From assembly GCA_964363205.1 (NCBI GenBank), contig CAYIHD010000002.1, positions 13,988 through 55,020 on the forward strand: a stretch of 41,033 bases of DNA. Reading direction: 5' to 3'. Of the stretch, positions 1,155 to 27,698 are shown piece after piece. This DNA is from an uncultured Candidatus Saccharibacteria bacterium. GTDB lineage: Bacteria > Patescibacteriota > Minisyncoccia > Phycocordibacterales > SBAW01. Numbering within the stretch: position 1 is the stretch's first letter; each line of letters starts with the position of its first letter. The notes beneath the pieces are model-generated. The model did not search any database. It saw only the letters and a program-made list of their open reading frames with translations, and was not told the origin of the DNA. The position numbers and the translations under genes are program-made.

Positions 1155-1190
1155 AAACCATGTGGGTAGCTATAGCTACTCGTATGGTTT
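1155..1190 (-). other. long imperfect hairpin abutting the trmD stop codon
   Basis: AAACCATGTGGGTAGCTA / TAGCTACTCGTATGGTTT forms 7+7 bp around a 4x4 internal loop and contains the perfect palindrome GTAGCTATAGCTAC. No clear T-run follows on the minus strand. Confidence 0.3.
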
Positions 1191-1843
1191 TATTTTGGGT
1201 TGCTGCGTTTTTTGGACTTCCAGCTATCCATGTTGGCGTGGTGGCCGGAGAGGAGGACCTTGGGGACGCGGTAGGGCTTCCCTTTTATTTTCAAAACTTC
1301 CGGACGGGTGTAGATTTCGTGGCTGGCGACGCGCGACTCCTCCAACGACTCAAATTTGCCGAGCACTCCTTTAATCTGCCGCGCCGTGGCATCGATAATA
1401 GCCATCGCCGGCACTTCGCCGCCGGTCAAAATATACGGCCCGACCGACACTTCCTCCGCCTTAAGCGCCTTAACGGCGCGAGCATCAATCCCCTCGTATC
1501 GCCCGCAAATAATAATCACCTCTTTAAGTTTAGAAAGTTTTTTTGCGTAAGCGTTGGTAAAAGGCTTCCCTCCCGCCGCCGTCACCAAAACTCGGACATC
1601 GGATGTCCGAGTTTTGGTCTTGATTTTCTGGACGGCTTTTATGACCGGCTCGGCGCGCAGGACCATGCCGGGCCCGCCGCCGTACGGCCGCTCATCAACC
1701 TTGCCCCACTTATTCCCCGCCGTATCGCGGAGTTGGTAGGTCTTAACCTTAAGCAGCTTCTCCTTCTGTGCACGACCAAGTATCGACGCCTGCGTATAGG
1801 CCTCAACAACTTCGGGGAAGAGTGTAATCACGTGGAAGTTCAT
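1190..1843 (-). CDS. trmD: tRNA (guanine37-N1)-methyltransferase TrmD
   Basis: Contains the motifs RPYGGGPGMVL, ICGRYEGIDAR, LTGGEVPAMAIIDA and LLSGHHA. 217 aa. Confidence 0.95.
   Translation of the reverse strand: MNFHVITLFPEVVEAYTQASILGRAQKEKLLKVKTYQLRDTAGNKWGKVDERPYGGGPGMVLRAEPVIKAVQKIKTKTRTSDVRVLVTAAGGKPFTNAYAKKLSKLKEVIIICGRYEGIDARAVKALKAEEVSVGPYILTGGEVPAMAIIDATARQIKGVLGKFESLEESRVASHEIYTRPEVLKIKGKPYRVPKVLLSGHHANMDSWKSKKRSNPK
1584..1618. repeat. REP-like perfect palindrome, copy A (inside the trmD CDS)
   Basis: ACCAAAACTCGGACATC-G-GATGTCCGAGTTTTGGT has 17-bp arms. The same core occurs at 21186-21212, 21746-21778 and 22436-22472. It encodes TKTRTSDVRVLV within TrmD. Confidence 0.9.
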
Positions 1844-13007: not shown

Positions 13008-15986
13008 ATGTCCGAGAAATTCGTACCCCTGCATGTACATTCGCACTACTCTTTGCTTAAGGCTCTGCCTAAAATACCGGAGCTGGTTGCCAAGGCCAAG
13101 GCGCAGGGATGCACCGCTTTGGCGCTGACCGACATCGACAATTTGTACGGCGCGATTGAGTTTTATAAAGAGTGTAAGTCGGCCGGCATCAAGCCTATCA
13201 TCGGGCTGGATGCAAAAATGGAAGGCGGCGCGCGCAAGCTCCTGTACGCCGCCGACCAGAGCGGCTACAAAAACCTGCTGGCACTGGTGACCCTATCGCA
13301 CCTCACGGACGCGCAAGGTACGCCCATTACACAAGCGATGTTGGACGAGCACTCGCTCGGGCTCGTTATTGTTGACCCAAAAGACCCTGCGATAGCCCTG
13401 CCGGAAATATATTATCTCGAGCCCGATGACCGCCGTGCATGGGAGGTGATGCGCGCGATAGAGAACCGCGGCCCGCAGGACGGTAATGTCGCGGAGGAAG
13501 ACGAGGCGTACTTTTTCCCCACCGCCGCCGCGATTGCCAAAAAATATACACAGGAACAAATAGAAAAAACATCCGCAATCGCCGGACAGTGCAACTTGGA
13601 GCTTGAGTTGGGCAAGTGGGTGTTCCCCAACTTCCCCATTCCGGCCGGCTCAACGTACAACGACGAACTGCGCGTACTTATAGAAGAAGGAATAAAGAGG
13701 CGTTTTATCGCCGCCACCCCCGAGGTGCGCGAGCGCGTTGAGTACGAGTACAACATCATCACCACCAAAGGCTACGCGCCGTACTTTCTTGTCGTCGCCG
13801 ACCTGCTCGCCTTTGCAAGGCAAAACGGCATACTGACCACCATCCGCGGCTCGGTTGCCGGCTCGCTTGTCACCTACGTCACCGGCATTACGAACGTAAA
13901 TCCGCTCGAGTACAAGCTCCCCTTCGAGCGCTTTCTCAACCCTGAGCGCCCCTCGGCGCCCGACATCGACATGGACTTTGCCGACAACCGGCGCGATGAG
14001 GTTATCGAGTACGCCAAAAAGAAATACGGCACCGACAACGTCGCGCAGATAGGAACCTTTGGCACCATGCTCGCGCGCGGCGTCGTACGCGACGTCGCGC
14101 GCGCGCTGGGCTACGCCTACGGCATCGGCGACCGCATCGCCAAGGAAATCCCCTTCGGCTCGCAGGGCTTCCCCATGACGCTGGAGCGCGCGCTTGAGGA
14201 AAATCCGGAGCTTAAAAAAATCTACGACAACGAGGAGGACGCGAAAGAAATAATCGACCTGGGCCGCAAAATAGAGGGCTGCGCGCGCCACGTCGGCGTG
14301 CACGCGGCGGGCGTCGTGATGTCGCCCACGCCGCTTGTCGACTACACGCCGCTGCAGTTGGACCCGAAGGGAGGCAAAATAATAACCCAGTATGACATGT
14401 ACTCGATAGAGGACGCGGGGCTGCTTAAGTTCGACTTCCTCGGCATCCGCAACCTCGCCATTTTGGCCGACGCGGTGCGGATTGTGGAGAAGACCCGCGG
14501 CATGAAGGTGGATATAGAAAACGTGCCGGTCGACGACAAAAGAACCTTCGAGATGCTGGCGCGCGGCGAGACCGAAGGGACCTTCCAGCTTAACGGCGCG
14601 GGGATGACCCGCTATCTTAAAGAGCTCAAACCCTCCAGCATCCACGACATCAACGCGATGGTCGCGCTCTTCCGCCCCGGACCCATGGAGACCATCCCCA
14701 TGTACATCGAGCGCAAGCACAACCCCGCGCTCATCCACTACCTCGACCCGCGGATGAAGGAGTATCTCGACTTTTCTTACGGCGTCATCGTCTACCAAGA
14801 CGATGTTTTGCTGACCGCGATTACACTCGCCGGATACAGCTGGCTCGGCGCCGACATGCTGCGCAAGGCCATGGGCAAAAAAATTCCGGCGGTTATGCAG
14901 GCCGAAAAAGAAAAATTGATTAAGGGGTTTGTCGACTACGGCAAGCTCACGTTCAGCTTGGCGGAAAAACTGTGGAAGCTCATCGAGCCGTTTGCCGCGT
15001 ACGGGTTCAACAAGGCGCACGCGGCGAGCTACGGCAAGGTCGCCTACCAAACCGCGTATATGAAGGCTAACTTCCCCGTCGAGTACATGGCGGCGGTGCT
15101 TACGGCGGAGTCCGGCGACGTCGACACGGTCGGCATCATGGTCGCCGAGTGCAAGCGCATCGGCATACCGGTTTTGCCGCCGGATGTCCAGATCAGCTTC
15201 GGCGACTTTACCGTGCTCTTGGGCGCCACCAAAGAACGCACCGAAAAAGCGGCGGTGCTTGCCGCGGGAGTGTCGGAAGACTCGATACGCTTCGGACTCA
15301 ACTCCATTAAAAACTTCGGTCGCGGCGTCGCCGAGGCGATTATTACCGAGCGCAAAGCAGGCGGGCGGTTTATTTCGTTATCCGACTTTCTGCGGCGCGT
15401 TACCGACCAGAACCTGAATAAAAAAGCGCTGGAAAGCCTGATCAGGTGCGGCGCGCTCGACTCGCTTGGCGAGCGCGGAGCCATGCTCGCGTCTATCGAA
15501 CTCCTGCTGGAGTATCATCGCGGACAAAAAGGAGGCTCGAGCGACTCTTTGTTTGCGGGGCTCGGGGGGAGTAGCGATCTAATACTGCCGGCGGCCCCGC
15601 CGGCGCCGCTCGGAGAGAAACTAAAATGGGAAAAGGAGCTCTTGGGGTTGTACGTATCCGGGCATCCGCTCGACCAGTACAAAGAAAAACTGAAAAAACG
15701 CTCCATGAGCATCGGCGAAATTAAAACTAAGACCATGCCCGGCGCGACCACTGTTGTGGCCGGCATGGTGGAGGACGTGCGCGTGATACTCACCAAGAGC
15801 GGCGACCAAATGGCGTTTATCAAGCTGATGGACGAAACCGGCTCAATCGAGGCGGTCGTATTTCCAAAAAGTTTTGTCGAGTATAAAAATATGTTAAAAC
15901 CCGAGAGTTGTATAGCGCTCAAAGGACGGCTCTCCAACCGCAACGGCGAATTGAGCCTTGTTGCAGAAGCGCTGAAAGCATTGTAG
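13008..15986 (+). CDS. dnaE: DNA polymerase III alpha subunit (short, 992 aa)
   Basis: PHP N-terminus (HVHSHYSLL), palm and fingers motifs (PDIDMDF, FDFLG), and a C-terminal OB fold. Confidence 0.93.
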   Translation: MSEKFVPLHVHSHYSLLKALPKIPELVAKAKAQGCTALALTDIDNLYGAIEFYKECKSAGIKPIIGLDAKMEGGARKLLYAADQSGYKNLLALVTLSHLTDAQGTPITQAMLDEHSLGLVIVDPKDPAIALPEIYYLEPDDRRAWEVMRAIENRGPQDGNVAEEDEAYFFPTAAAIAKKYTQEQIEKTSAIAGQCNLELELGKWVFPNFPIPAGSTYNDELRVLIEEGIKRRFIAATPEVRERVEYEYNIITTKGYAPYFLVVADLLAFARQNGILTTIRGSVAGSLVTYVTGITNVNPLEYKLPFERFLNPERPSAPDIDMDFADNRRDEVIEYAKKKYGTDNVAQIGTFGTMLARGVVRDVARALGYAYGIGDRIAKEIPFGSQGFPMTLERALEENPELKKIYDNEEDAKEIIDLGRKIEGCARHVGVHAAGVVMSPTPLVDYTPLQLDPKGGKIITQYDMYSIEDAGLLKFDFLGIRNLAILADAVRIVEKTRGMKVDIENVPVDDKRTFEMLARGETEGTFQLNGAGMTRYLKELKPSSIHDINAMVALFRPGPMETIPMYIERKHNPALIHYLDPRMKEYLDFSYGVIVYQDDVLLTAITLAGYSWLGADMLRKAMGKKIPAVMQAEKEKLIKGFVDYGKLTFSLAEKLWKLIEPFAAYGFNKAHAASYGKVAYQTAYMKANFPVEYMAAVLTAESGDVDTVGIMVAECKRIGIPVLPPDVQISFGDFTVLLGATKERTEKAAVLAAGVSEDSIRFGLNSIKNFGRGVAEAIITERKAGGRFISLSDFLRRVTDQNLNKKALESLIRCGALDSLGERGAMLASIELLLEYHRGQKGGSSDSLFAGLGGSSDLILPAAPPAPLGEKLKWEKELLGLYVSGHPLDQYKEKLKKRSMSIGEIKTKTMPGATTVVAGMVEDVRVILTKSGDQMAFIKLMDETGSIEAVVFPKSFVEYKNMLKPESCIALKGRLSNRNGELSLVAEALKAL

Positions 15987-16263: not shown

Positions 16264-17499
16264 ATGAATATAGTTATGGAAGAGCGCGACCACAAGAAAC
16301 TGGGTCCGGAGCTGGAGCTTTTTTATATTGACCAAGTTGTCGGCAAGGGGCTCCCGATGTTTTTACCTAAGGGCGCGACGGTTAAGCGCGAGCTTGAAAA
16401 TTTTGTTATCGAAGAGGAGACAAAGCGCGGGTACCAACACGTACATACGCCGGATTTGGCGCGCTTGGAATTGTATGAAAAAAGCGGGCATTATCCGCAC
16501 TACAAAGACTCTATGTACGCGCCTATCGAGATAGACGACGAAAAATTTATGCTCAGGCCGATGACCTGTCCGCACCATTTCCAAATGTATTTATCCAGTC
16601 CGCACAGCTACCGCGAACTGCCTATGCGCATAGCGGAATTGGCTCAACTGTACCGCTACGAGCAGTCCGGCGAGCTGATGGGCTTACAGCGCCTGCGCAC
16701 TTTCTGCCTTGCTGACGCGCACATAATCTGCGCCTCCGAGCAACAAGCCGCCGACGAAATAAGCGGCGCACTCGACCTTATCGAGCATATGGCAAACGTA
16801 TTCGGACTCAAACTGGGTACCGACTACCGGTACCGGCTTTCGCTGGGCGACCGCGCAAATACCGAAAAGTATTACAAAAACGACGCCGCATGGGAAAAGA
16901 GCGAGGATTTGCTGCGCGAGGTTATGCAGAAACGCGGCTGCGAGTTTGAGGAGGCAAGGGATGAAGCGGCGTTCTACGGTCCGAAAATCGACATACAAAT
17001 GAAGAACGTAAACGGAAAAGAAGACACTGCTTTTACCTGCCAGTACGACTTCTGCATGCCGGACCGTTTTGACTTAAGCTACACCGGCGAGGATGGAACA
17101 AAGAAGCGCGCGTTTGTCGTGCATCGCTCATCTATCGGCGCTATAGAGCGCATCATGGCTTTTCTTATAGAAAAATACGAAGGAGCCTTCCCCACCTGGC
17201 TCGCGCCGGTGCAGGCGCGCGTGCTCCCTATCGGCGAGGCGCATCAAGCATTTGCGCGCGAGGTTGCGGCACAACTAAAAGCCGCCGGGATACGCGCGGA
17301 GCTCGATGACAGCAACGAAAGCCTGGGCAAAAAAATCCGCGACGCCAAAAAAATGAAAGTCCCCTACCTGCTGGTTATAGGCGACGCGGAAGTCGCGGCC
17401 GGCACCGCAACGCTCGAGGGCAGGAACGGAAAAGTCGGAGCCCTTTCGGTCTCCGACATAATCCAAAAACTAAAGGAGGAAATTACTTCGCGCGGTTAA
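16264..17499 (+). CDS. thrS: threonyl-tRNA synthetase, catalytic core plus anticodon-binding domain only
   Basis: Begins at the RDHKKLG...LF motif that marks the start of the class II core. 411 aa, against about 640 aa for the canonical enzyme. An alternative ATG is at 16276. Confidence 0.92.
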   Translation: MNIVMEERDHKKLGPELELFYIDQVVGKGLPMFLPKGATVKRELENFVIEEETKRGYQHVHTPDLARLELYEKSGHYPHYKDSMYAPIEIDDEKFMLRPMTCPHHFQMYLSSPHSYRELPMRIAELAQLYRYEQSGELMGLQRLRTFCLADAHIICASEQQAADEISGALDLIEHMANVFGLKLGTDYRYRLSLGDRANTEKYYKNDAAWEKSEDLLREVMQKRGCEFEEARDEAAFYGPKIDIQMKNVNGKEDTAFTCQYDFCMPDRFDLSYTGEDGTKKRAFVVHRSSIGAIERIMAFLIEKYEGAFPTWLAPVQARVLPIGEAHQAFAREVAAQLKAAGIRAELDDSNESLGKKIRDAKKMKVPYLLVIGDAEVAAGTATLEGRNGKVGALSVSDIIQKLKEEITSRG

Positions 17500-18508
17500 T
17501 CTGGGCCTGTATAAACGGGTCGATACCGGTGAGTAGCGGAGCGGAATTCTGACGGACAAAAGTCTGGCCCGCCGGAGTCGCCCGAAGGGCGCCGGAGGAC
17601 GGGAGATCCGAGGACTTTTGGACGGCAGAATTCTGCGTAGCACCGCCCGTAAACCACGCGGCGATTTTGTTGTGCACTTTCTTTACCACAATCAAGTACG
17701 CGGCAAACAAGCACCACAGCACCAGGAAGCCCCAGTACAGCGCCGTGCCGACAGGCCCGAGCTCAAGACCGGTGTACGGCACCGCCGCGAGCGTCACGTA
17801 CGGAGTGTTGTTGTAGGCGATAGGACGCGGTGCTACGCAGTTAGGGTAGACGCCGGAGTAACCGCTCGGGCAGTAGTGAACTACCGGAGGTACACAGTTC
17901 GGGTACGTGCCGGTGTAACCGCTCGGGCAGTATTGAACCGGAGGGACACAGTTAGGGTACGTGCCGGTGTAACCTGATGGGCAGTATTGCTGCGGCCAAG
18001 AGCAATTGGGGTACGTACCCGTCATGCCCTGCGGGCAGTACTGAGTCTGCTGAGCAATCTGTCCGCCGATAGTGATGACGTTATTGTTGACGTTGTTGTT
18101 GTAGGAGCTCTGGGACTGCGCTTGAGACTGGTTTTGGGACTGGCGATTGCCTCCGCCGCCAAGAGTCGAACCTCCGGTAAACCCGCCGCCACCGAATCCG
18201 CCCATGCCGCCAAAACCGCTGCCGTAGTCGGAAAAGCCGGAGTCGGGGTAATAATCACCATAGCCGTAATCACTGGCGTAATAGTCGCCGTACCCAAAAT
18301 CACTACCTCCAAAATCGGAGGCGTAGTAATCGCCGTATCCAAAATCACTACCTCCAAAATCGGAGGCATAGTAATCGCCGTAGCCATAGTCACCAAACAG
18401 ATCGGCCGCCTGCGCTTTAGGCGCTACGGCGAACAATACGGCAACCAAAAGAAGCGCCGCGAGAGCGATGCTGATGTTACGAAAAGCGCTGTTGATAATA
18501 CTATTCAT
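17483..18508 (-). CDS. secreted / membrane-anchored tandem-repeat protein (341 aa)
   Basis: Signal peptide (...APKAQA), GYGDYYASDFGGSDF repeats, a Gly-rich and Q/N-rich linker, and 4x YCPSGYTGTYPNC. These are followed by VPYTG, a TM helix, KK, and a tail of about 60 aa. SD GGAG upstream. Confidence 0.85.
   Translation of the reverse strand: MNSIINSAFRNISIALAALLLVAVLFAVAPKAQAADLFGDYGYGDYYASDFGGSDFGYGDYYASDFGGSDFGYGDYYASDYGYGDYYPDSGFSDYGSGFGGMGGFGGGGFTGGSTLGGGGNRQSQNQSQAQSQSSYNNNVNNNVITIGGQIAQQTQYCPQGMTGTYPNCSWPQQYCPSGYTGTYPNCVPPVQYCPSGYTGTYPNCVPPVVHYCPSGYSGVYPNCVAPRPIAYNNTPYVTLAAVPYTGLELGPVGTALYWGFLVLWCLFAAYLIVVKKVHNKIAAWFTGGATQNSAVQKSSDLPSSGALRATPAGQTFVRQNSAPLLTGIDPFIQAQINRAK
17835..18052. 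repeat. four tandem 50-57-bp coding repeats (YCPxGxxGxYPNC modules)
   Basis: Units start near 17835, 17892, 17946 and 18003. Each shares the CAGTTxGGGTAxxxGCCGGxGTAACC...GGGCAGTA core. Confidence 0.8.
18248..18395. repeat. 45-bp tandem coding repeats (GYGDYYASDFGGSDF)
   Basis: Two full units (18278-18322 and 18323-18367) differ at 3 of 45 positions. Partial units flank them on both sides. Confidence 0.85.
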
Positions 18509-18594: not shown

Positions 18595-18640
18595 AAAAAA
18601 TGTGCGGTGGCATGGTACAAGAACCATGCCACCGAGCACA
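18595..18640 (-). terminator. intrinsic terminator
   Basis: GGTGGCATGGT-ACAAGA-ACCATGCCACC 11-bp stem, extended by TGTGC/GCACA. On the minus strand it is followed by TTTTTT. Confidence 0.7.
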
Positions 18641-20361: not shown

Positions 20362-20481
20362 GCATTGCAATATACCACATTTTTTAATAGGGTCAACTTG
20401 CATACTTGACAAATAAATGGCATGATGCTACCCTTGCAACTGCATTATATGACCCACAAAACTACATTCCAGGAGAACGCC

Positions 20482-21180
20482 ATGCGCGTTATAGCCGTTA
20501 TCGGCCTTATTGCCGTGCTTTTGCTCGGCGCGTGGGGCATTATCCAGCTCGCCTTTTTTATCCCTACCTTCCTTAGCAACATAGGCGGTTCTCTTGCTCC
20601 TAAAAATCAGGTAGCTCAAGTTGCCACCACCACCGTGCAGACGCCAATCGTGCAGACTCCGGCGGTTGTCGCTCCGGCGCGGGAAACGCAAAAGCCGGTG
20701 GTTAAAAAGCCGGCCGCCAAACCCGCGGCGGCGACATACGTTGCCAGCCCCAAACCGTACACTACCCTTTACGGCTATCCGGACCTGCAGGTACGCATGC
20801 TCGCCAATCCGAGCGTCGCGCGCGGCGGACAGGTCTCCATACAATTTGTTATCGAAAACGTCGGCACCAACATTGTCCCTGCCAACTGGTTCTTTACTGC
20901 GAGCCTCCCGTACTCGCCGGTCTACACCTATCAGTCGCCTGTTCAGCAGGCGCTGTACCCCGGCGACAAAATTGTTTACACGCTCGGCTATGTCGCGGAC
21001 TACCAATCTCAGTATCAATACGACGGCGGGTACGGTTGGAGTTATCCGTACTGGACATTGGACCAGTCGCAAGCATACGGCCAAATGTCGACCGTCTCTA
21101 TAAACGCCGACCCGTACAATCTTATCTACGAGCTGAACGAAAATAACAACACCGCCGGCATCTCCTACCAAGTCTATTAA
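20482..21180 (+). CDS. membrane-anchored CARDB-like domain protein (232 aa)
   Basis: AGGAG SD 6 nt before ATG 20482. TM helix, Pro/Ala/Lys linker, and a CARDB-like pattern (PDLQV...GGQVSIQFVIENVG...ADPYNLIYELNENNN). Confidence 0.8.
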   Translation: MRVIAVIGLIAVLLLGAWGIIQLAFFIPTFLSNIGGSLAPKNQVAQVATTTVQTPIVQTPAVVAPARETQKPVVKKPAAKPAAATYVASPKPYTTLYGYPDLQVRMLANPSVARGGQVSIQFVIENVGTNIVPANWFFTASLPYSPVYTYQSPVQQALYPGDKIVYTLGYVADYQSQYQYDGGYGWSYPYWTLDQSQAYGQMSTVSINADPYNLIYELNENNNTAGISYQVY

Positions 21181-21181
21181 A

Positions 21182-21212
21182 CCCAAAACTCGGACATCGG
21201 ATGTCCGAGTTT
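21182..21212. repeat. REP-like palindrome, copy B (right arm truncated)
   Basis: CCCAAAACTCGGACATC-G-GATGTCCGAGTTT has 13-bp paired arms (21186-21212). It starts 2 nt after the stop of the CARDB-like gene. Confidence 0.85.
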
Positions 21213-21218
21213 AACTAC

Positions 21219-21247
21219 TTGACTTGCTTTATCTAACTAGATACAGT
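21219..21247 (+). promoter_or_regulatory. canonical sigma70-type promoter (TTGACT-17-TACAGT)
   Basis: TTGACT (21219-21224), a 17-nt spacer, then TACAGT (21242-21247). Followed by an AGGAG SD and ATG 21276. Confidence 0.5.
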
Positions 21248-21275
21248 ATCGCCAGATTCAACAAGGAGATATGTC

Positions 21276-21703
21276 ATGGACAGCAGTGATATGCAGTTGG
21301 CCACCGGAATTTACGGGCCTTTACCCGGACAGTTCCTCATCGATAAGCAGCAGGCTTACGCGCTGAAAGACAACGAAATGAGCGGCATCGTATTTTGGTG
21401 CATGAGTGGCCGTGGAAAAAACGCAGTCGACAAGAAAAACGCCCCTTTGCGGAACAAATTCCCAAACACGCGGTGCAGGCGAGGGCGCAATATGAACGCG
21501 TTCGCATGCACAAATTCTTCGATCGGCTTATGCTCTTCACGCGGAATACCGAGCGCGACGGCGTCATCATCGCTGTTGGCGTTGACGAATTCTGGTACAC
21601 ACTCGCCACCTGGGATGCCAGCACCGAACACGTGTGGATCCCAGAGTTCGATGAGAGCAACCCAGATCGTCCTCGGCTCACGCGAACTTGCCTGGGTCGC
21701 TGA
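21276..21703 (+). CDS. hypothetical protein (~142 aa) requiring a -1 frameshift at A_AAA_AAC (21416-21422)
   Basis: Frame 0 begins with a strong SD and ATG. Past ~21420 it becomes non-protein-like and runs through a terminator and REP copy C. The -1 frame is protein-like and stops at 21703, 8 nt before an intrinsic terminator. Confidence 0.5.
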
Positions 21704-21711
21704 TACAACGC

Positions 21712-21735
21712 CCCGCGCCACAAGCGCGGGTTTTT
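21712..21735 (+). terminator. intrinsic terminator
   Basis: CCCGCGC-CACAA-GCGCGGG followed by TTTTT. Confidence 0.7.
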
Positions 21736-21745
21736 ATCCACAAGA

Positions 21746-21778
21746 CCAAAACTCGGACATCCGATGTCCGAGTTTTGG
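21746..21778. repeat. REP-like palindrome, copy C (inverted: central base is C)
   Basis: CCAAAACTCGGACATC-C-GATGTCCGAGTTTTGG has 16-bp arms and lies 15 nt upstream of the RAYT-like ATG. Confidence 0.9.
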
Positions 21779-21792
21779 GTTATACTGATTTT

Positions 21793-22434
21793 ATGGAGCT
21801 GTATCATGTACTCAATCGCGGCGTAGACAAACGGACAGTCGCGCAGGACGAGGAGGACCATGTCCGGTTCATGCACGATCTTTTTGTGATGAACGACAAA
21901 AAAGAAATACTGCACTCGGGGCTTGCAAGTCGGTACGTTGAAGGATCGCGCGACTTGTTGGTGCGCATACATGCATTTTGTCTAATGCCAAACCACTATC
22001 ACCTGCTACTTTCCGCTGCGGTTAAAAATGGCATCCCGCAGTTTATGAAAAAGCTCAACATGGGATATGCGAAATATTTCAATGAAAAATATGAACGATC
22101 GGGTGCGCTCTGGCAAGGAAAATATAAAAAGAAATTAATTGAGCGAGACGCACACTTTTTTTATATTCCTTACTATATTCATCTCAATGCGCTCGACCTT
22201 TCGATGCCACAATGGCGAGAAGGAAAAGTGCAAAATATTTCCAAAGCTTTGGACAAACTCCGGGAATACCGATGGAGCAGCCATCTAGATTATCTTGGAA
22301 AGCCCAACTTCCCGTCCATTACCGAGCGTGAGTTTTTAGCAAGCACTATTGGCACACGTGCGCGATATGAAAAAGAAATAGGAAACATTATTAGCAGATC
22401 AGACATTGCGACAGGTAGTTTCTCGATAGAATAG
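21793..22434 (+). CDS. IS200/IS605-family HUH Y1 transposase, RAYT-like (213 aa)
   Basis: YHVLNRG N-terminus, HUH motif CLMPNHYHLLL, GALWQGKYK, and a Tyr motif YYIHLNAL. TATACT (21782-21787) lies 5 nt upstream of ATG 21793. Confidence 0.85.
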   Translation: MELYHVLNRGVDKRTVAQDEEDHVRFMHDLFVMNDKKEILHSGLASRYVEGSRDLLVRIHAFCLMPNHYHLLLSAAVKNGIPQFMKKLNMGYAKYFNEKYERSGALWQGKYKKKLIERDAHFFYIPYYIHLNALDLSMPQWREGKVQNISKALDKLREYRWSSHLDYLGKPNFPSITEREFLASTIGTRARYEKEIGNIISRSDIATGSFSIE

Positions 22435-22435
22435 A

Positions 22436-22472
22436 GCCCAAAACTCGGACATCGGATGTCCGAGTTTTGGGC
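22436..22472. repeat. REP-like palindrome, copy D (longest)
   Basis: GCCCAAAACTCGGACATC-G-GATGTCCGAGTTTTGGGC has 18-bp arms. It lies between the convergent RAYT-like and gyrB stop codons. Confidence 0.9.
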
Positions 22473-22477
22473 TGGAT

Positions 22478-24565
<2,088 letters not shown>

Positions 24566-25146: not shown

Positions 25147-25172
25147 CGCCCAGCTAAGCTGGGCGTTTTTTT
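25147..25172 (+). terminator. intrinsic terminator
   Basis: CGCCCAGC-TAA-GCTGGGCG followed by T7. The T-run overlaps the pheT stop codon. Confidence 0.75.
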
Positions 25173-26970
25173 ATCTTATTTCGAAGCCTTTCGCTTTTAG
25201 GGCGGTGGAGACTTTTTCCATAATTATATTTACCTCCGCCTCGGTGAGCGTGCGGTCAAACGACTGGAAAATAATCCGGTACGCCAGGGAGGTCCGACCT
25301 TCCTTGGAGAAGGTATCGAACAATGAGATTTTGTGAGCCAACTCCCCCGCCTCGTCTTTTATCGTTTGTTGTACTTGTTGTTCGTTGTTTGTTGGCGATG
25401 TCCACATCGCTATATCGCGCACAATGTACGGGTATTTTGAAAAGTGCTCAAAACGCTTCGCTGTCGACAGCGGCAACGCCTCGTAGGCACTTGCATCTGC
25501 CGGTGCCAGTGTCTTTTCGGATGCTTTTTGCTTTTCGGTAATCGTGCCGAGCATCATCGACTCTGTGCCGTCTTTCCAAACAGTCCCTATCTCAAATAAT
25601 TTAATTTCTTTAAGCCCCAGCAAATCTTTGTTCGGCTTGTTTTTGGCAAGAGCCTCCGTAAGCCCCGGCACCAAACTGTCACGCAAGTACGGTCGTACCG
25701 AGTCGACCTTGTTAAGCACCATCCGCTCGCCCTTGTCCGCAAAGACGCTCGTAAACACTTCCGAATAGCCCTGTTGCACCAACTCCTCGCGCGCGCGCTC
25801 AGCCGCAAAAAAATTCTTATTTATCTCTGTAGACATTCCATGTCTACAAGCAGGCAGAGGCACGGCGGGGATTCTGTCGTAGCCGACGATACGCCCGACC
25901 TCCTCAACCAAATCTTCGGGAATACTCAGGTCGAGCCGCTCAAACGGCACCGTTACTTCGAACACACCCTCTTGCTCTTTGTACGGCAAGCCAAGCCGCA
26001 CAAATACGTCGGTGATGTCCGCACCGGTCAGCCGGGTGCCGAGCACTTTGTTTACTTTCTCCACGGTGACATTGGCGTACATCGGTTTTTGCGGCTCGGG
26101 GTATGCGTCGACAAATCCCGCCAATTCGCCGCCGGCGAGTTTTTGTATAAGCTCAACCACCGACTGCATACCAAAGGCCGCGAGCTCCGGAGATATAACC
26201 TGCTCGAAGCGCGTCGATGCATCGGTGCGCAACTTGAGAGCGGCGGCGGTCTTGCGCACCGACACGCCGTCAAAGTTAGCGGACTCGATGACTATATCCT
26301 TGGTAGATTCGTCTATAGCAGCCGGCATGCCGCCCTTAACGCCGGCAATGCCCACCGGCGCGTCTCCTGCGGTAATCACCAACATCGAGTCTTTGAGCGT
26401 GTAGCTTTTTTTATCGAGCGCAATCATGACCTCGTCGTTTTGTGCGGCGCGCACACCAAGGGCAAGGCTACCGAGTTTGCCGGCATCAAATGCGTGCAGG
26501 GGCTGGCCGAGGTTAAACATGACAAAGTTGGTCGCATCGACAACGTTGTTGATAGAACGCTGACCTATGGCCGCTAAGCGCTGTTTGAGCCACTCCGGCG
26601 ACGGCCCGACTTTTACCCCTTTGATATACCCCGCGATATACCGCTTACAGAGAACGGTTCTCTGTATATCGACCGTAACCTCGGCAGTTTTAGGCAGTAA
26701 GTCAGACTTACCGGAAAGCGGGTCGTTGGCGAGAGGAATTTTTAAAATAGCCGACAATTCTTTGGCGATGCCGCGATGGCTGAGGCAATCGTGTCCGCGG
26801 TTCGGCGTCACCTTAACATCCAGCACCCAATCTTTGGGAGAATCTGATTCTCCCACTTTTTCTATACCGTCTATTTCAAAAGCATGAAAGGTGAGCGCGT
26901 CTGCAAGCGTCGATGCATCGGGCAACGGTGCGTCAAAAAATTTATCCAGCCAAAGCTTGCTTATTTTCAT
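25171..26970 (-). CDS. pheT: phenylalanyl-tRNA synthetase beta subunit (599 aa, lacks the N-terminal tRNA-binding OB-fold domain)
   Basis: MKISKLWLDKF...VTPNRGHDCLSHRGIA. B3/4, B5 and ferredoxin-fold anticodon-binding (FDX-ACB)-like regions are present. Start is ATG 26970. Confidence 0.9.
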   Translation of the reverse strand: MKISKLWLDKFFDAPLPDASTLADALTFHAFEIDGIEKVGESDSPKDWVLDVKVTPNRGHDCLSHRGIAKELSAILKIPLANDPLSGKSDLLPKTAEVTVDIQRTVLCKRYIAGYIKGVKVGPSPEWLKQRLAAIGQRSINNVVDATNFVMFNLGQPLHAFDAGKLGSLALGVRAAQNDEVMIALDKKSYTLKDSMLVITAGDAPVGIAGVKGGMPAAIDESTKDIVIESANFDGVSVRKTAAALKLRTDASTRFEQVISPELAAFGMQSVVELIQKLAGGELAGFVDAYPEPQKPMYANVTVEKVNKVLGTRLTGADITDVFVRLGLPYKEQEGVFEVTVPFERLDLSIPEDLVEEVGRIVGYDRIPAVPLPACRHGMSTEINKNFFAAERAREELVQQGYSEVFTSVFADKGERMVLNKVDSVRPYLRDSLVPGLTEALAKNKPNKDLLGLKEIKLFEIGTVWKDGTESMMLGTITEKQKASEKTLAPADASAYEALPLSTAKRFEHFSKYPYIVRDIAMWTSPTNNEQQVQQTIKDEAGELAHKISLFDTFSKEGRTSLAYRIIFQSFDRTLTEAEVNIIMEKVSTALKAKGFEIR

Positions 26971-26972
26971 AT

Positions 26973-27698
26973 CTAAAATTGATTGATGAACCGCAGGTCG
27001 GCGGAGTGCATGTACCGGACGTCGTCTATCCCCCACTTAAGCATCGCCAAGCGGTCCAGCCCCATACCAAACGCAAACCCCTGATATTTTTTAGGGTCGA
27101 TACCGGCGTTTTTGAGCACAGCCGGGTGCACCATGCCGGCACCCATCATTTCTATCCATTTGTCTTTCAACTTTTCCGGAACCGCATCACCCACCAGTCG
27201 CATATCCACCTCTACGCCGGGCTCGACAAACGGAAAGAAGCTCGGACGAAAGCGTATTTCCACCTGCGCGCCTTTAAACATATTTTTTAAAAAGGATTCG
27301 AGCGTGCCCTTTAAATGCGACAGAGAAATATCTTCCCCGACCACCAACCCTTCTATTTGCGTAAACTCCGCCTCATGTGTCATGTCGGTCGCCTCGTTGC
27401 GGAAGACTTTGCCGGGGACAATCACGCGGTACGGCGGTAGGGCGCCCTTTTTTATCTGCGACTCCATGTAGCGCACCTGCACCGGAGAGGTGTGTGTGCG
27501 CAAAACATGCTCCGGCATATCCTTTATAAAAAAAGTGTCCTGCATGTCTCGGCTCGGATGGTCCTTCGGCACGTTGAGCGCGTCAAAGTTGTACCGCTCG
27601 CTCTCCAGCAGAGGCCCTTCGGCGAACGTAAAGCCCATATCAAAAAATATTCTGTTGGCCTCGCGTATAAGAGATGCTATCGGATGAATACTGCCCAT
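26973..27698 (-). CDS. pheS: phenylalanyl-tRNA synthetase alpha subunit, N-terminally short (241 aa; alternative TTG start at 27728)
   Basis: Contains HPSRDMQDTFF, FRNEATD.THEAEF.Q.EG and GAGMVHP. Confidence 0.9.
   Translation of the reverse strand: MGSIHPIASLIREANRIFFDMGFTFAEGPLLESERYNFDALNVPKDHPSRDMQDTFFIKDMPEHVLRTHTSPVQVRYMESQIKKGALPPYRVIVPGKVFRNEATDMTHEAEFTQIEGLVVGEDISLSHLKGTLESFLKNMFKGAQVEIRFRPSFFPFVEPGVEVDMRLVGDAVPEKLKDKWIEMMGAGMVHPAVLKNAGIDPKKYQGFAFGMGLDRLAMLKWGIDDVRYMHSADLRFINQF

Follow-up and report, generated by a model that had tools for sequence, protein, structure and literature searches.

In a Kaiserbacteria/Adlerbacteria-type genome of the Candidate Phyla Radiation (CPR), a single gene for a Y1 HUH nuclease/transposase is tightly bracketed by copies of a perfect palindrome, and the two probably form a unit resembling the REPtrons known from repetitive extragenic palindromic (REP) sequences, that is, a class-2 Y1 HUH enzyme acting on single-stranded DNA (ssDNA) together with its cognate hairpin. 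The DNA in question, referred to here as the window, is a stretch of 41,033 nucleotides (positions 13,988–55,020 of contig CAYIHD010000002.1, assembly GCA_964363205.1) from an uncultured Candidatus Saccharibacteria bacterium, in which the Y1 gene occupies 21793–22434 on the plus strand. An earlier reading, made without database searches (the sequence-only reading below), had likened the arrangement to a REP-associated tyrosine transposase (RAYT) and its repeats.

The 27-nt core of the palindrome, AAACTCGGACATC[G/C]GATGTCCGAGTTT, is present at exactly four places of the window, as had been claimed, starting at 1588, 21186, 21749 (central C) and 22441; searching with the pattern AAACTCGGACATCSGATGTCCGAGTTT returns exact matches at 1588–1614, 21186–21212, 21749–21775 and 22441–22467. 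Allowing up to three mismatches adds no further match in the 41-kb window, and 100 dinucleotide shuffles of the window contain none. Copy A (1584–1618) is a 35-nt perfect palindrome lying in-frame within trmD, where it encodes T-KTRTSDVRVL-V. Copy B (21186–21212), upstream of the promoter of a small gene cassette, comprises the 27-nt perfect core; it begins 6 nt past the stop codon of a CARDB-domain gene (20422–21180) and carries on its left a CCCA extension without a partner on the right. Copy C (21746–21778; 33 nt, central C) lies directly 5′ of the Y1 gene, and copy D (22435–22473; 39 nt, central G) directly follows its stop codon, so that three of the four copies cluster around this gene. 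The 33–37 nt initially given for the perfect palindromes fit A and C, but B is shorter and D longer. The predicted folding energies of the copies as ssDNA lie between −12 and −21 kcal/mol, with z from −7.9 to −10.4, and the window contains 13 perfect hairpins whose arms reach 9 bp or more, versus 0–3 in shuffles. Rfam yielded no match in the region. The flanking variant of the window, CCAAAACTCGGACATCsGATGTCCGAGTTTTGG, is free of stop codons in all six frames; this openness was rejected both as a remarkable property (P ~0.2 for a random 33-mer, a back-of-envelope estimate) and as a general trait (the variant of locus L044 has TAG in two frames).

Related loci tie the palindrome to the protein. 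A search for the core in relatives had been suggested, and exact-core scans (requiring an exact 21-mer) did find exact matches in species-representative genomes, one per species, and in metagenome contigs, giving 41 loci, a set biased towards palindrome carriers (these and further related loci are cited here by L numbers); most of the matches came from Hainich and JGI Ga0209xxx samples. L002 (Streptomyces), L013 and L039 were dropped, since they represent either matches by chance or the fold-back end of a contig. Y1 genes whose proteins are 77–89% identical have the same palindrome on both sides (L004, L015/L021/L024, L020/L025, L023/L034). At 62–66% identity, each Y1 gene has a palindrome variant of its own beside it: CCAAAGTTGGACATCsGATGTCCAACTTTGG in L042 (three copies), CCAAACTAGGACACGcCGTGTCCTAGTTTGG in L044 (two copies), CAAAATCAGTCATCsGATGACTGATTTTG in L049 (three copies), AATAAGTCGGACATCgGATGTCCGACTTATT in L050 (two copies, the upstream one with one arm mismatch) and CCAAACTTGGACAtcgggTGTCCAAGTTTGG in L051 (two copies). 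When ten variants are aligned, 100% of the cells pair and 9 of the 15 pairs change on both sides, a number equalled in 0 of 500 shuffles, and slid registers collapse. The complete pairing is partly by construction because the variants were chosen as hairpins beside the gene, whereas the co-variation of the palindrome with the Y1 protein is not; this co-variation, seen across seven lineages, is the strongest evidence in support of a cognate pair.

The placement of the palindromes recurs as well: at all loci, a −10-like box follows the end of the upstream copy after 2–3 nt, and the start of the downstream copy meets or overlaps the stop codon. Orientation is not set by the central base as the sequence-only reading had held, since the flanking pairs vary between C..G (window, L015/L021/L024), G..C (L042, L049), G..G (L004, L020/L025, L023/L034, L050) and C..C (L044), and T is also seen at in-gene sites. 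In two independent lineages, a partial duplicate of the left arm stands beside one flanking palindrome (L049 10650–10692, L051 1385–1423) and ends in ..GTCA or ..GACA, 2–3 nt short of the centre; these duplicates may be the trace of a cleavage or strand-transfer point.

The Y1 gene encodes a 213-aa TnpA-REP/RAYT-like protein that bears the YHVLNRG, NHYHLLL and YIHLN motifs pointed out previously, with H68/H70 as the HUH pair and Y128 as the catalytic tyrosine. It passes Pfam Y1_Tnp (PF01797; 42.3 bits against a cutoff of 23, E 9.5e-11), and 36 homologues are invariant at N67, H68, H70, W107, Q108, Y128, H130, N132 and W161-S162-S163. The class-2 Y motif takes the form YIHLNA in the window protein, and about half of these aligned homologues have YIHLNP; the class-1.1 signatures of IS200/IS605 TnpA, DH[VI]H and Y---Q, are absent, the corresponding motifs here being NHYH and YIHLN. 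Together with NCBIfam scores of 40.1 bits for REP_Tyr_transpos (NF047646) versus 17.6 for IS200 (NF033573), this supports a class-2, TnpA-REP/RAYT-like Y1 HUH protein rather than an IS200-type TnpA. Within class 2, the motifs NHYH, WQ, YIHLN[AP] and the Ser-Ser tail (WSS) fit TnpA-Y1 subclass 2.1 (Bertels group 1), an assignment made solely by motif comparison with Table 1 of PMC6006769.

An AlphaFold (AF2) model of the protein (pLDDT 85) has as its top Foldseek match in the PDB 4ER8, in which E. coli TnpA-REP is bound to a REP hairpin (180 columns), followed by the IS608 and ISDra2 TnpA over ~131 columns. Among PDB comparisons it is only this fold match that points to TnpA-REP, because sequence searches (single sequence and profile) gave just weak ISDra2 matches (E 1e-3 to 1e-2). 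Some 2,900 clusters at 90% identity resemble the protein, with members of ~214 aa; among 120 clusters listed, the few with a named source are all Patescibacteria (Kaiserbacteria, Paceibacterota) or unclassified 'bacterium' metagenome-assembled genomes (MAGs). An exhaustive search of 50%-identity clusters returned 182 at E ≤1e-30 and 4,375 at E ≤1e-10. Pfam finds only Y1_Tnp in the window protein, without a C-terminal helix-turn-helix (HTH) domain. A neighbouring tnpB, which it had been proposed to look for, is present neither in the window nor in six related loci annotated with Pfam (L042–L044, L049–L051).

Between copy C and the start codon lies a −10-like TATACT (21781–21786, plus strand), 2 nt after the palindrome and 6 nt before the ATG—not 5 nt, as first stated—in what appears to be a leaderless-type start; lacking a −35 element, the box escaped the promoter scan, and homologous loci have TATAAT, TATAGT or TACAAT in the equivalent place. 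Domestication of the gene, which had been deduced from this promoter alone, is unsupported.

Under the proposed mechanism, the palindrome would fold into a hairpin of 13–19 bp whenever its DNA becomes single-stranded, for instance at the replication fork; the enzyme would bind this hairpin, cut nearby and rejoin the strands, whereby the hairpin would be copied or moved. Since the upstream copy abuts the −10 box, binding of the enzyme there could also autoregulate the Y1 gene. New copies would persist only where they are harmless, i.e. right after stop codons, as with B and D, or in-frame in protein surface loops, and in the latter case the frame encoding the hydrophilic KTRTSDVRVL would be the one mostly retained.

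Several observations weigh against calling the pair a REPtron. The GT[AG]G guide tetranucleotide is absent: as the sequence-only reading had already remarked for the classical GTAG head, the feet of the palindrome are CCAAA.../...TTTGG, and neither GTAG nor GTGG occurs at the feet of the variants. Copy number is low, with four copies in 41 kb, only one or two exact cores per species-representative genome, and a few per genome instead of hundreds; JAZKAA01 contains just the pair that flanks its Y1 gene, and the Adlerbacteria bin-136 MAG has in-gene copies and no Y1-flanking copy was found in it. The NF047646 score is half of that model's 80-bit cutoff, and the protein motifs match a subclass that was found without REPs (Quentin et al. 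2018, PMC6006769). In-gene copies are perfect across flank divergence of 10–30%, where a purely selfish, recent mover would predict otherwise, and that the Y1 protein mobilises the palindrome is something we infer from their association only. The RAYT-like interpretation thus holds for fold, HUH and tyrosine motifs, cognate flanking palindrome and lack of tnpB, and falls short in the guide tetranucleotide, copy number and NCBIfam cutoff.

The genomic surroundings of the Y1 module bear on the first alternative, namely that the 728-bp palindrome-tnpA-palindrome unit is an autonomous IS200-like insertion sequence (IS) whose solo palindromes are footprints, solo ends or derivatives resembling MITEs (miniature transposable elements with inverted repeats). 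The size is close to the ~700 bp of IS200, and the module is found in at least five genomic contexts (gyrB/CARDB, ATPase, gap, RF and RNase J). Within clades its surroundings are shared: the sortase-CARDB-...-gyrB site is common to the window, L025 and L023, the ATPase site to L004 and L015, and the gap site to L042 and L044; L049 has a solo palindrome beside gap. In the window, the convergent neighbour is gyrB (22478–24550, minus strand). Presence and absence of the module are polymorphic, with breakpoints that coincide with palindromes: L011/L014 match L023 collinearly on either side (85–90% identity), with one palindrome left and no Y1 gene, L001 has one palindrome between terminator and gyrB and likewise no Y1 gene, and in L012 copy B, the cassette gene and its terminator are followed directly by gyrB. 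These Y1-less states are accounted for equally well by an insertion beside a palindrome that was already there and by a deletion in which the two flanking copies recombined, so that the 'empty' sites do not speak for a transposon in particular. The Y1 gene is also poorer in GC than its locus by 9–13 points in all ten lineages (the window and nine homologous loci), with a third-position GC (GC3) of 0.47 versus 0.67–0.72 in the window, which counts towards an IS; across lineages, however, its GC follows that of the host, from 0.46 to 0.63.

Further evidence runs counter to an IS. The class-1.1 signatures are missing and the NCBIfam IS200 score lies far below its cutoff of 55 bits, both ends carry the same perfect palindrome instead of distinct left-end and right-end hairpins, every locus has one Y1 gene copy per contig (the sole copy in the window included) and none has two, neighbourhoods are kept within clades at 63–89% protein identity, and relatives on plasmids or phages are only distant (≤34% identity). 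We regard an autonomous IS200-like element as unlikely. The overall pattern suggests that the gene has long resided in its hosts and was now and then lost or relocated, which is nearer to a RAYT than to an IS.

Copies B and C enclose a cassette consisting of a sigma-70-like promoter (21219–21247, plus; TTGACT-17-TACAGT), a gene for a conserved hypothetical protein without a family match (21276–21703, plus) and a canonical intrinsic terminator with a GC stem and T-run (21712–21737, plus). This promoter-gene-terminator order is as described in the sequence-only reading; its suggestion of a mobilisable unit is not borne out, as relatives (L011 compared with L023, L012 and L001) vary in the presence of the Y1 module and not of the cassette. 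A run of four C at 21443–21446, compared with five in the 98%-identical L037, splits the cassette gene into two frames in the window, either through a true frameshift or through a homopolymer error; L012 has an intact homologue. The window (21186–21778) and L042 (10684–11330) each have a third palindrome that marks off one or two small hypothetical genes adjoining the Y1 module; the two lineages have this extra segment on opposite sides of the module.

Away from Y1 genes, the palindrome departs from the extragenic picture drawn earlier: copy A is located within trmD (1190–1843, minus strand), the gene for tRNA (m1G37) methyltransferase (Pfam tRNA_m1G_MT, 7e-40), and most non-flanking copies of relatives are in coding sequence too. 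In trmD (...KIKT-KTRTSDVRVL-VTAAGG...), alignment to solved TrmD shows that the palindrome fills a hypervariable loop after AVQKI and extends into the next beta-strand, the start of which is encoded by its right arm. Among 120 orthologues (77–90% identity), this loop ranges from 8 to >30 residues while all else is conserved. The palindrome replaces loop residues, with a net gain of 3–4 aa instead of 9–11 aa added, and in L048, which shares its assembly with L001, the trmD loop is short and holds no palindrome. At another site, L038 differs from the window by a 58-nt block between flanks that are just 77% identical. Because of the loop replacement in trmD and the block in L038, the attempt to delimit clean 'empty site' boundaries for solo copies, in genes or between them, was abandoned as not definable.

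Across related contigs, seven distinct host genes carry non-flanking copies versus about seven other intergenic sites. In these genes—trmD, class-I lysS, leuS, atpG, the RNase R/II gene (rnr), dus and a reverse transcriptase (RT) gene, the last in 11 loci with about six distinct sequences—the core is in-frame, open reading frames of 60–600 codons span the palindrome on both sides, and the Pfam domains pass. Six of the seven use the frame encoding KTRTSDVRVL (P ~0.02), in which the central base (G, C or T) is a synonymous third position, while dus reads KLGHRMSEF. The 26 non-central positions are identical at orthologous sites whose flanks are 69–90% identical, and cognate variants aside, no decayed copies (2–5 mismatches to the 27-mer) were detected in 413 kb of loci.

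Other palindromes have taken up similar positions. The trmD loop contains a cognate-type variant, CCAAAATCAGACATCCGATGTCTGATTTTGG, in another frame in L045, a different palindrome, AGTACTACGATATATCGTAGTACT, in L047/L010, and a short palindrome in L046. A second family, ACTACGATATATCGTAGT, whose outer arms are copy-specific yet complementary, occurs in nine loci (L010 3141–3164; L047 2841–2864; L024 399–424; and the RT gene in L016/L022/L029/L030/L031/L033), its hosts being trmD, one more coding sequence and the RT gene, in which it lies downstream of the first palindrome at a distance of 190 nt; it has no known partner enzyme. In the RT gene, its arms appear as ACTACG..CGTAGT or ACTTCG..CGAAGT, with single-mismatch intermediates present, and as AAAC..GTTT or AAAG..CTTT. 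In the window, pheT (25171–27036, minus strand) has three in-frame 21-nt perfect palindromes (25828–25848, 26646–26666 and 26835–26855). Since TGTAGACATTCCATGTCTACA from pheT recurs in dnaG (L045 19973) and dus (L003 2994), and TACAGAGAACnGTTCTCTGTA at L007 3847, further families of dispersed in-gene palindromes exist.

This raises the idea that the short perfect palindromes of this CPR lineage are more than tolerated selfish DNA, being maintained as DNA or RNA hairpins within essential genes while actively remodelling the surface loops of proteins, and being either preserved to the letter or altered symmetrically, through the Y1 enzyme or through repair templated by the hairpin. Compatible with this are the recurrence of at least three repeat families in trmD, pheT, dus, dnaG, leuS and RT genes, the four different palindromes found in the trmD loop across lineages, and the compensation of stem changes even when the protein is altered, one compensated change in the RT gene turning V to E. 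As it stands, the idea is tentative and rather unlikely to be correct.

Among the other palindromes seen, several short ones share the apex GGACATCsGATGTCC (L007 3044–3064, L034 700–735, L011 1814–1846), and one such short palindrome is a second copy inside leuS. The sortase linker of L034 holds a composite palindrome, GTSDVPWTSDVQ, a similar composite with compensated differences being present in L011/L014. Two long perfect hairpins of the window lie elsewhere: one at 2090–2121 with 14-bp arms, which is intergenic downstream of the trmD region and kept in L017 and L048, and one at 18605–18634 with 12-bp arms, which is unique. An open reading frame on the minus strand (17483–18508) without a Pfam match contains tandem repeats of 54 nt ×4 (17826–18043) and 45 nt ×3 (18253–18387).

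The coding and intergenic copies also invite a reading in which host selection maintains the palindromes as structural signals, be it a terminator, an mRNA-stability or pausing hairpin or the site of a host factor, with their adjacency to the Y1 gene being secondary. Copies B and D follow stop codons, as previously noticed together with a possible terminator function; D is indeed terminator-like for gyrB on the minus strand, while B and C lack a T-tract after them and the cassette gene's own canonical terminator lies 8 nt before C. The absolute retention of the core between diverged flanks, the compensated changes of the second family in the RT gene and the persistence of copies in MAGs without a detected Y1 gene would all suit such host signals. 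Most copies, however, are placed mid-coding-sequence, and a host signal unrelated to the enzyme is disfavoured because the palindrome variant changes along with the Y1 protein in the seven lineages, which makes this reading distinctly improbable.

A DNA-uptake-type sequence or a recognition sequence of a restriction or defence system, enriched in the genome, is a still weaker candidate. Uptake sequences of Neisseria and Haemophilus also occur within coding regions and with a frame bias; yet they number about one per kb, as opposed to 1–4 palindromes per genome or contig here, and three of the four window copies gather around the Y1 gene, so we consider this very improbable. An artefact of the assembly or the library, for example a palindromic linker or a fold-back chimera (the unrelated L039 match is a fold-back at a contig end), is effectively refuted by independent data sets, as the same in-frame positions recur in JGI, ENA and NCBI assemblies with reading frames intact on both sides and flanks diverged.

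If the pair is indeed REPtron-like, it extends a type of system that has been studied almost only in Proteobacteria to organisms whose genomes are typically under ~1 Mb. In the literature searched, we found no report of a RAYT or REP in Patescibacteria, nor of in-gene palindromes in CPR bacteria. What is new is the CPR host, the guide-less, fully symmetric hairpin with its very low copy number, and a repeat population that is mainly intragenic, frame-biased and letter-perfect; by its sequence motifs, the enzyme would in addition be a subclass-2.1 member with cognate hairpins. REPtrons as such, REPs that are perfect palindromes, TIRYTs with self-complementary repeats, in-gene REPs and the Rickettsia palindromic elements (RPEs) have all been described before. 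In Proteobacteria, hundreds of copies blur the spread of the repeat and the role of the enzyme, whereas the minimal, low-copy system in CPR differs in this respect. With its symmetric, guide-less hairpin, subclass-2.1 motifs and mostly coding repeats, the pair therefore offers a clean test of how an enzyme may recognise a hairpin without a guide tetranucleotide. Moreover, peptides derived from mobile repeats in essential translation genes of CPR bacteria affect the annotation, alignment and phylogeny of marker genes, among them trmD, pheT and those for aminoacyl-tRNA synthetases, and they lead to the question of why in-gene hairpins are conserved far beyond their coding context.

Compared with known systems, the unit shares with tnpA-only IS200 elements the Y1 fold, a length of ~0.7 kb and subterminal hairpins, but differs from them in lacking class-1.1 motifs, in its identical and perfect end hairpins, and in its single copy per contig with within-clade synteny. 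With RPEs it has in common a palindromic repeat that lies in-frame within functional genes, seven in the present case. RPE-1 measures ~100–150 bp and has no known associated transposase; the repeat described here is 27–39 nt long, Y1-linked and letter-perfect at orthologous sites. Intragenic REPs as well as RPEs are found in-frame in housekeeping genes for tRNA synthetases and tRNA modification, where loops tolerate them (Di Nocera 2013).

A further relative is subclass 2.1, the tyrosine transposases associated with terminal inverted repeats (TIRYTs), with which the protein shares NH[YF]H, W[EQ], Y[IV]HLNP, the Ser-Ser tail (here WSS) and a length of ~215–240 aa. The Y---NP motif of class 2 is what sets such proteins apart from the Y---Q of IS200 (PMC6006769). 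Among TIRYTs, some have flanking repeats that are self-complementary, and these make up small families (Di Nocera et al. 2013); subclass 2.1 has been described as devoid of REP-like flanks (Quentin et al. 2018, PMC6006769). The present unit differs from TIRYTs and TIRtrons in that the TIR motif GGGGWSAS is absent, its flanks being hairpin palindromes, and in that Pfam detects no C-terminal HTH of the DnaA_C/HTH_23/28 type.

The REPtrons of E. coli, Pseudomonas, Stenotrophomonas and Marinomonas, in which TnpA-REP/RAYT is paired with REP, BIME or REPIN repeats, differ in several respects: the palindrome of the window has no GT[AG]G head, it is fully symmetric, so that both strands give the same hairpin, no doublet (REPIN) organisation was seen, a handful of mostly intragenic non-flanking copies takes the place of tens to hundreds, the host is a CPR bacterium and the NCBIfam RAYT model stays below its cutoff. 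Perfect-palindrome REP groups have nevertheless been described (PMC8266576), as has gene loss that leaves REPs behind (PMC3733652). What the unit shares with REPtrons is a Y1 HUH gene without tnpB, a hairpin repeat on both sides of this gene and elsewhere in the genome, an enzyme and repeat that co-evolve, and a fold nearest to that of 4ER8. While it thus falls outside several of the formal criteria for a RAYT, it probably works like a RAYT/REP pair.

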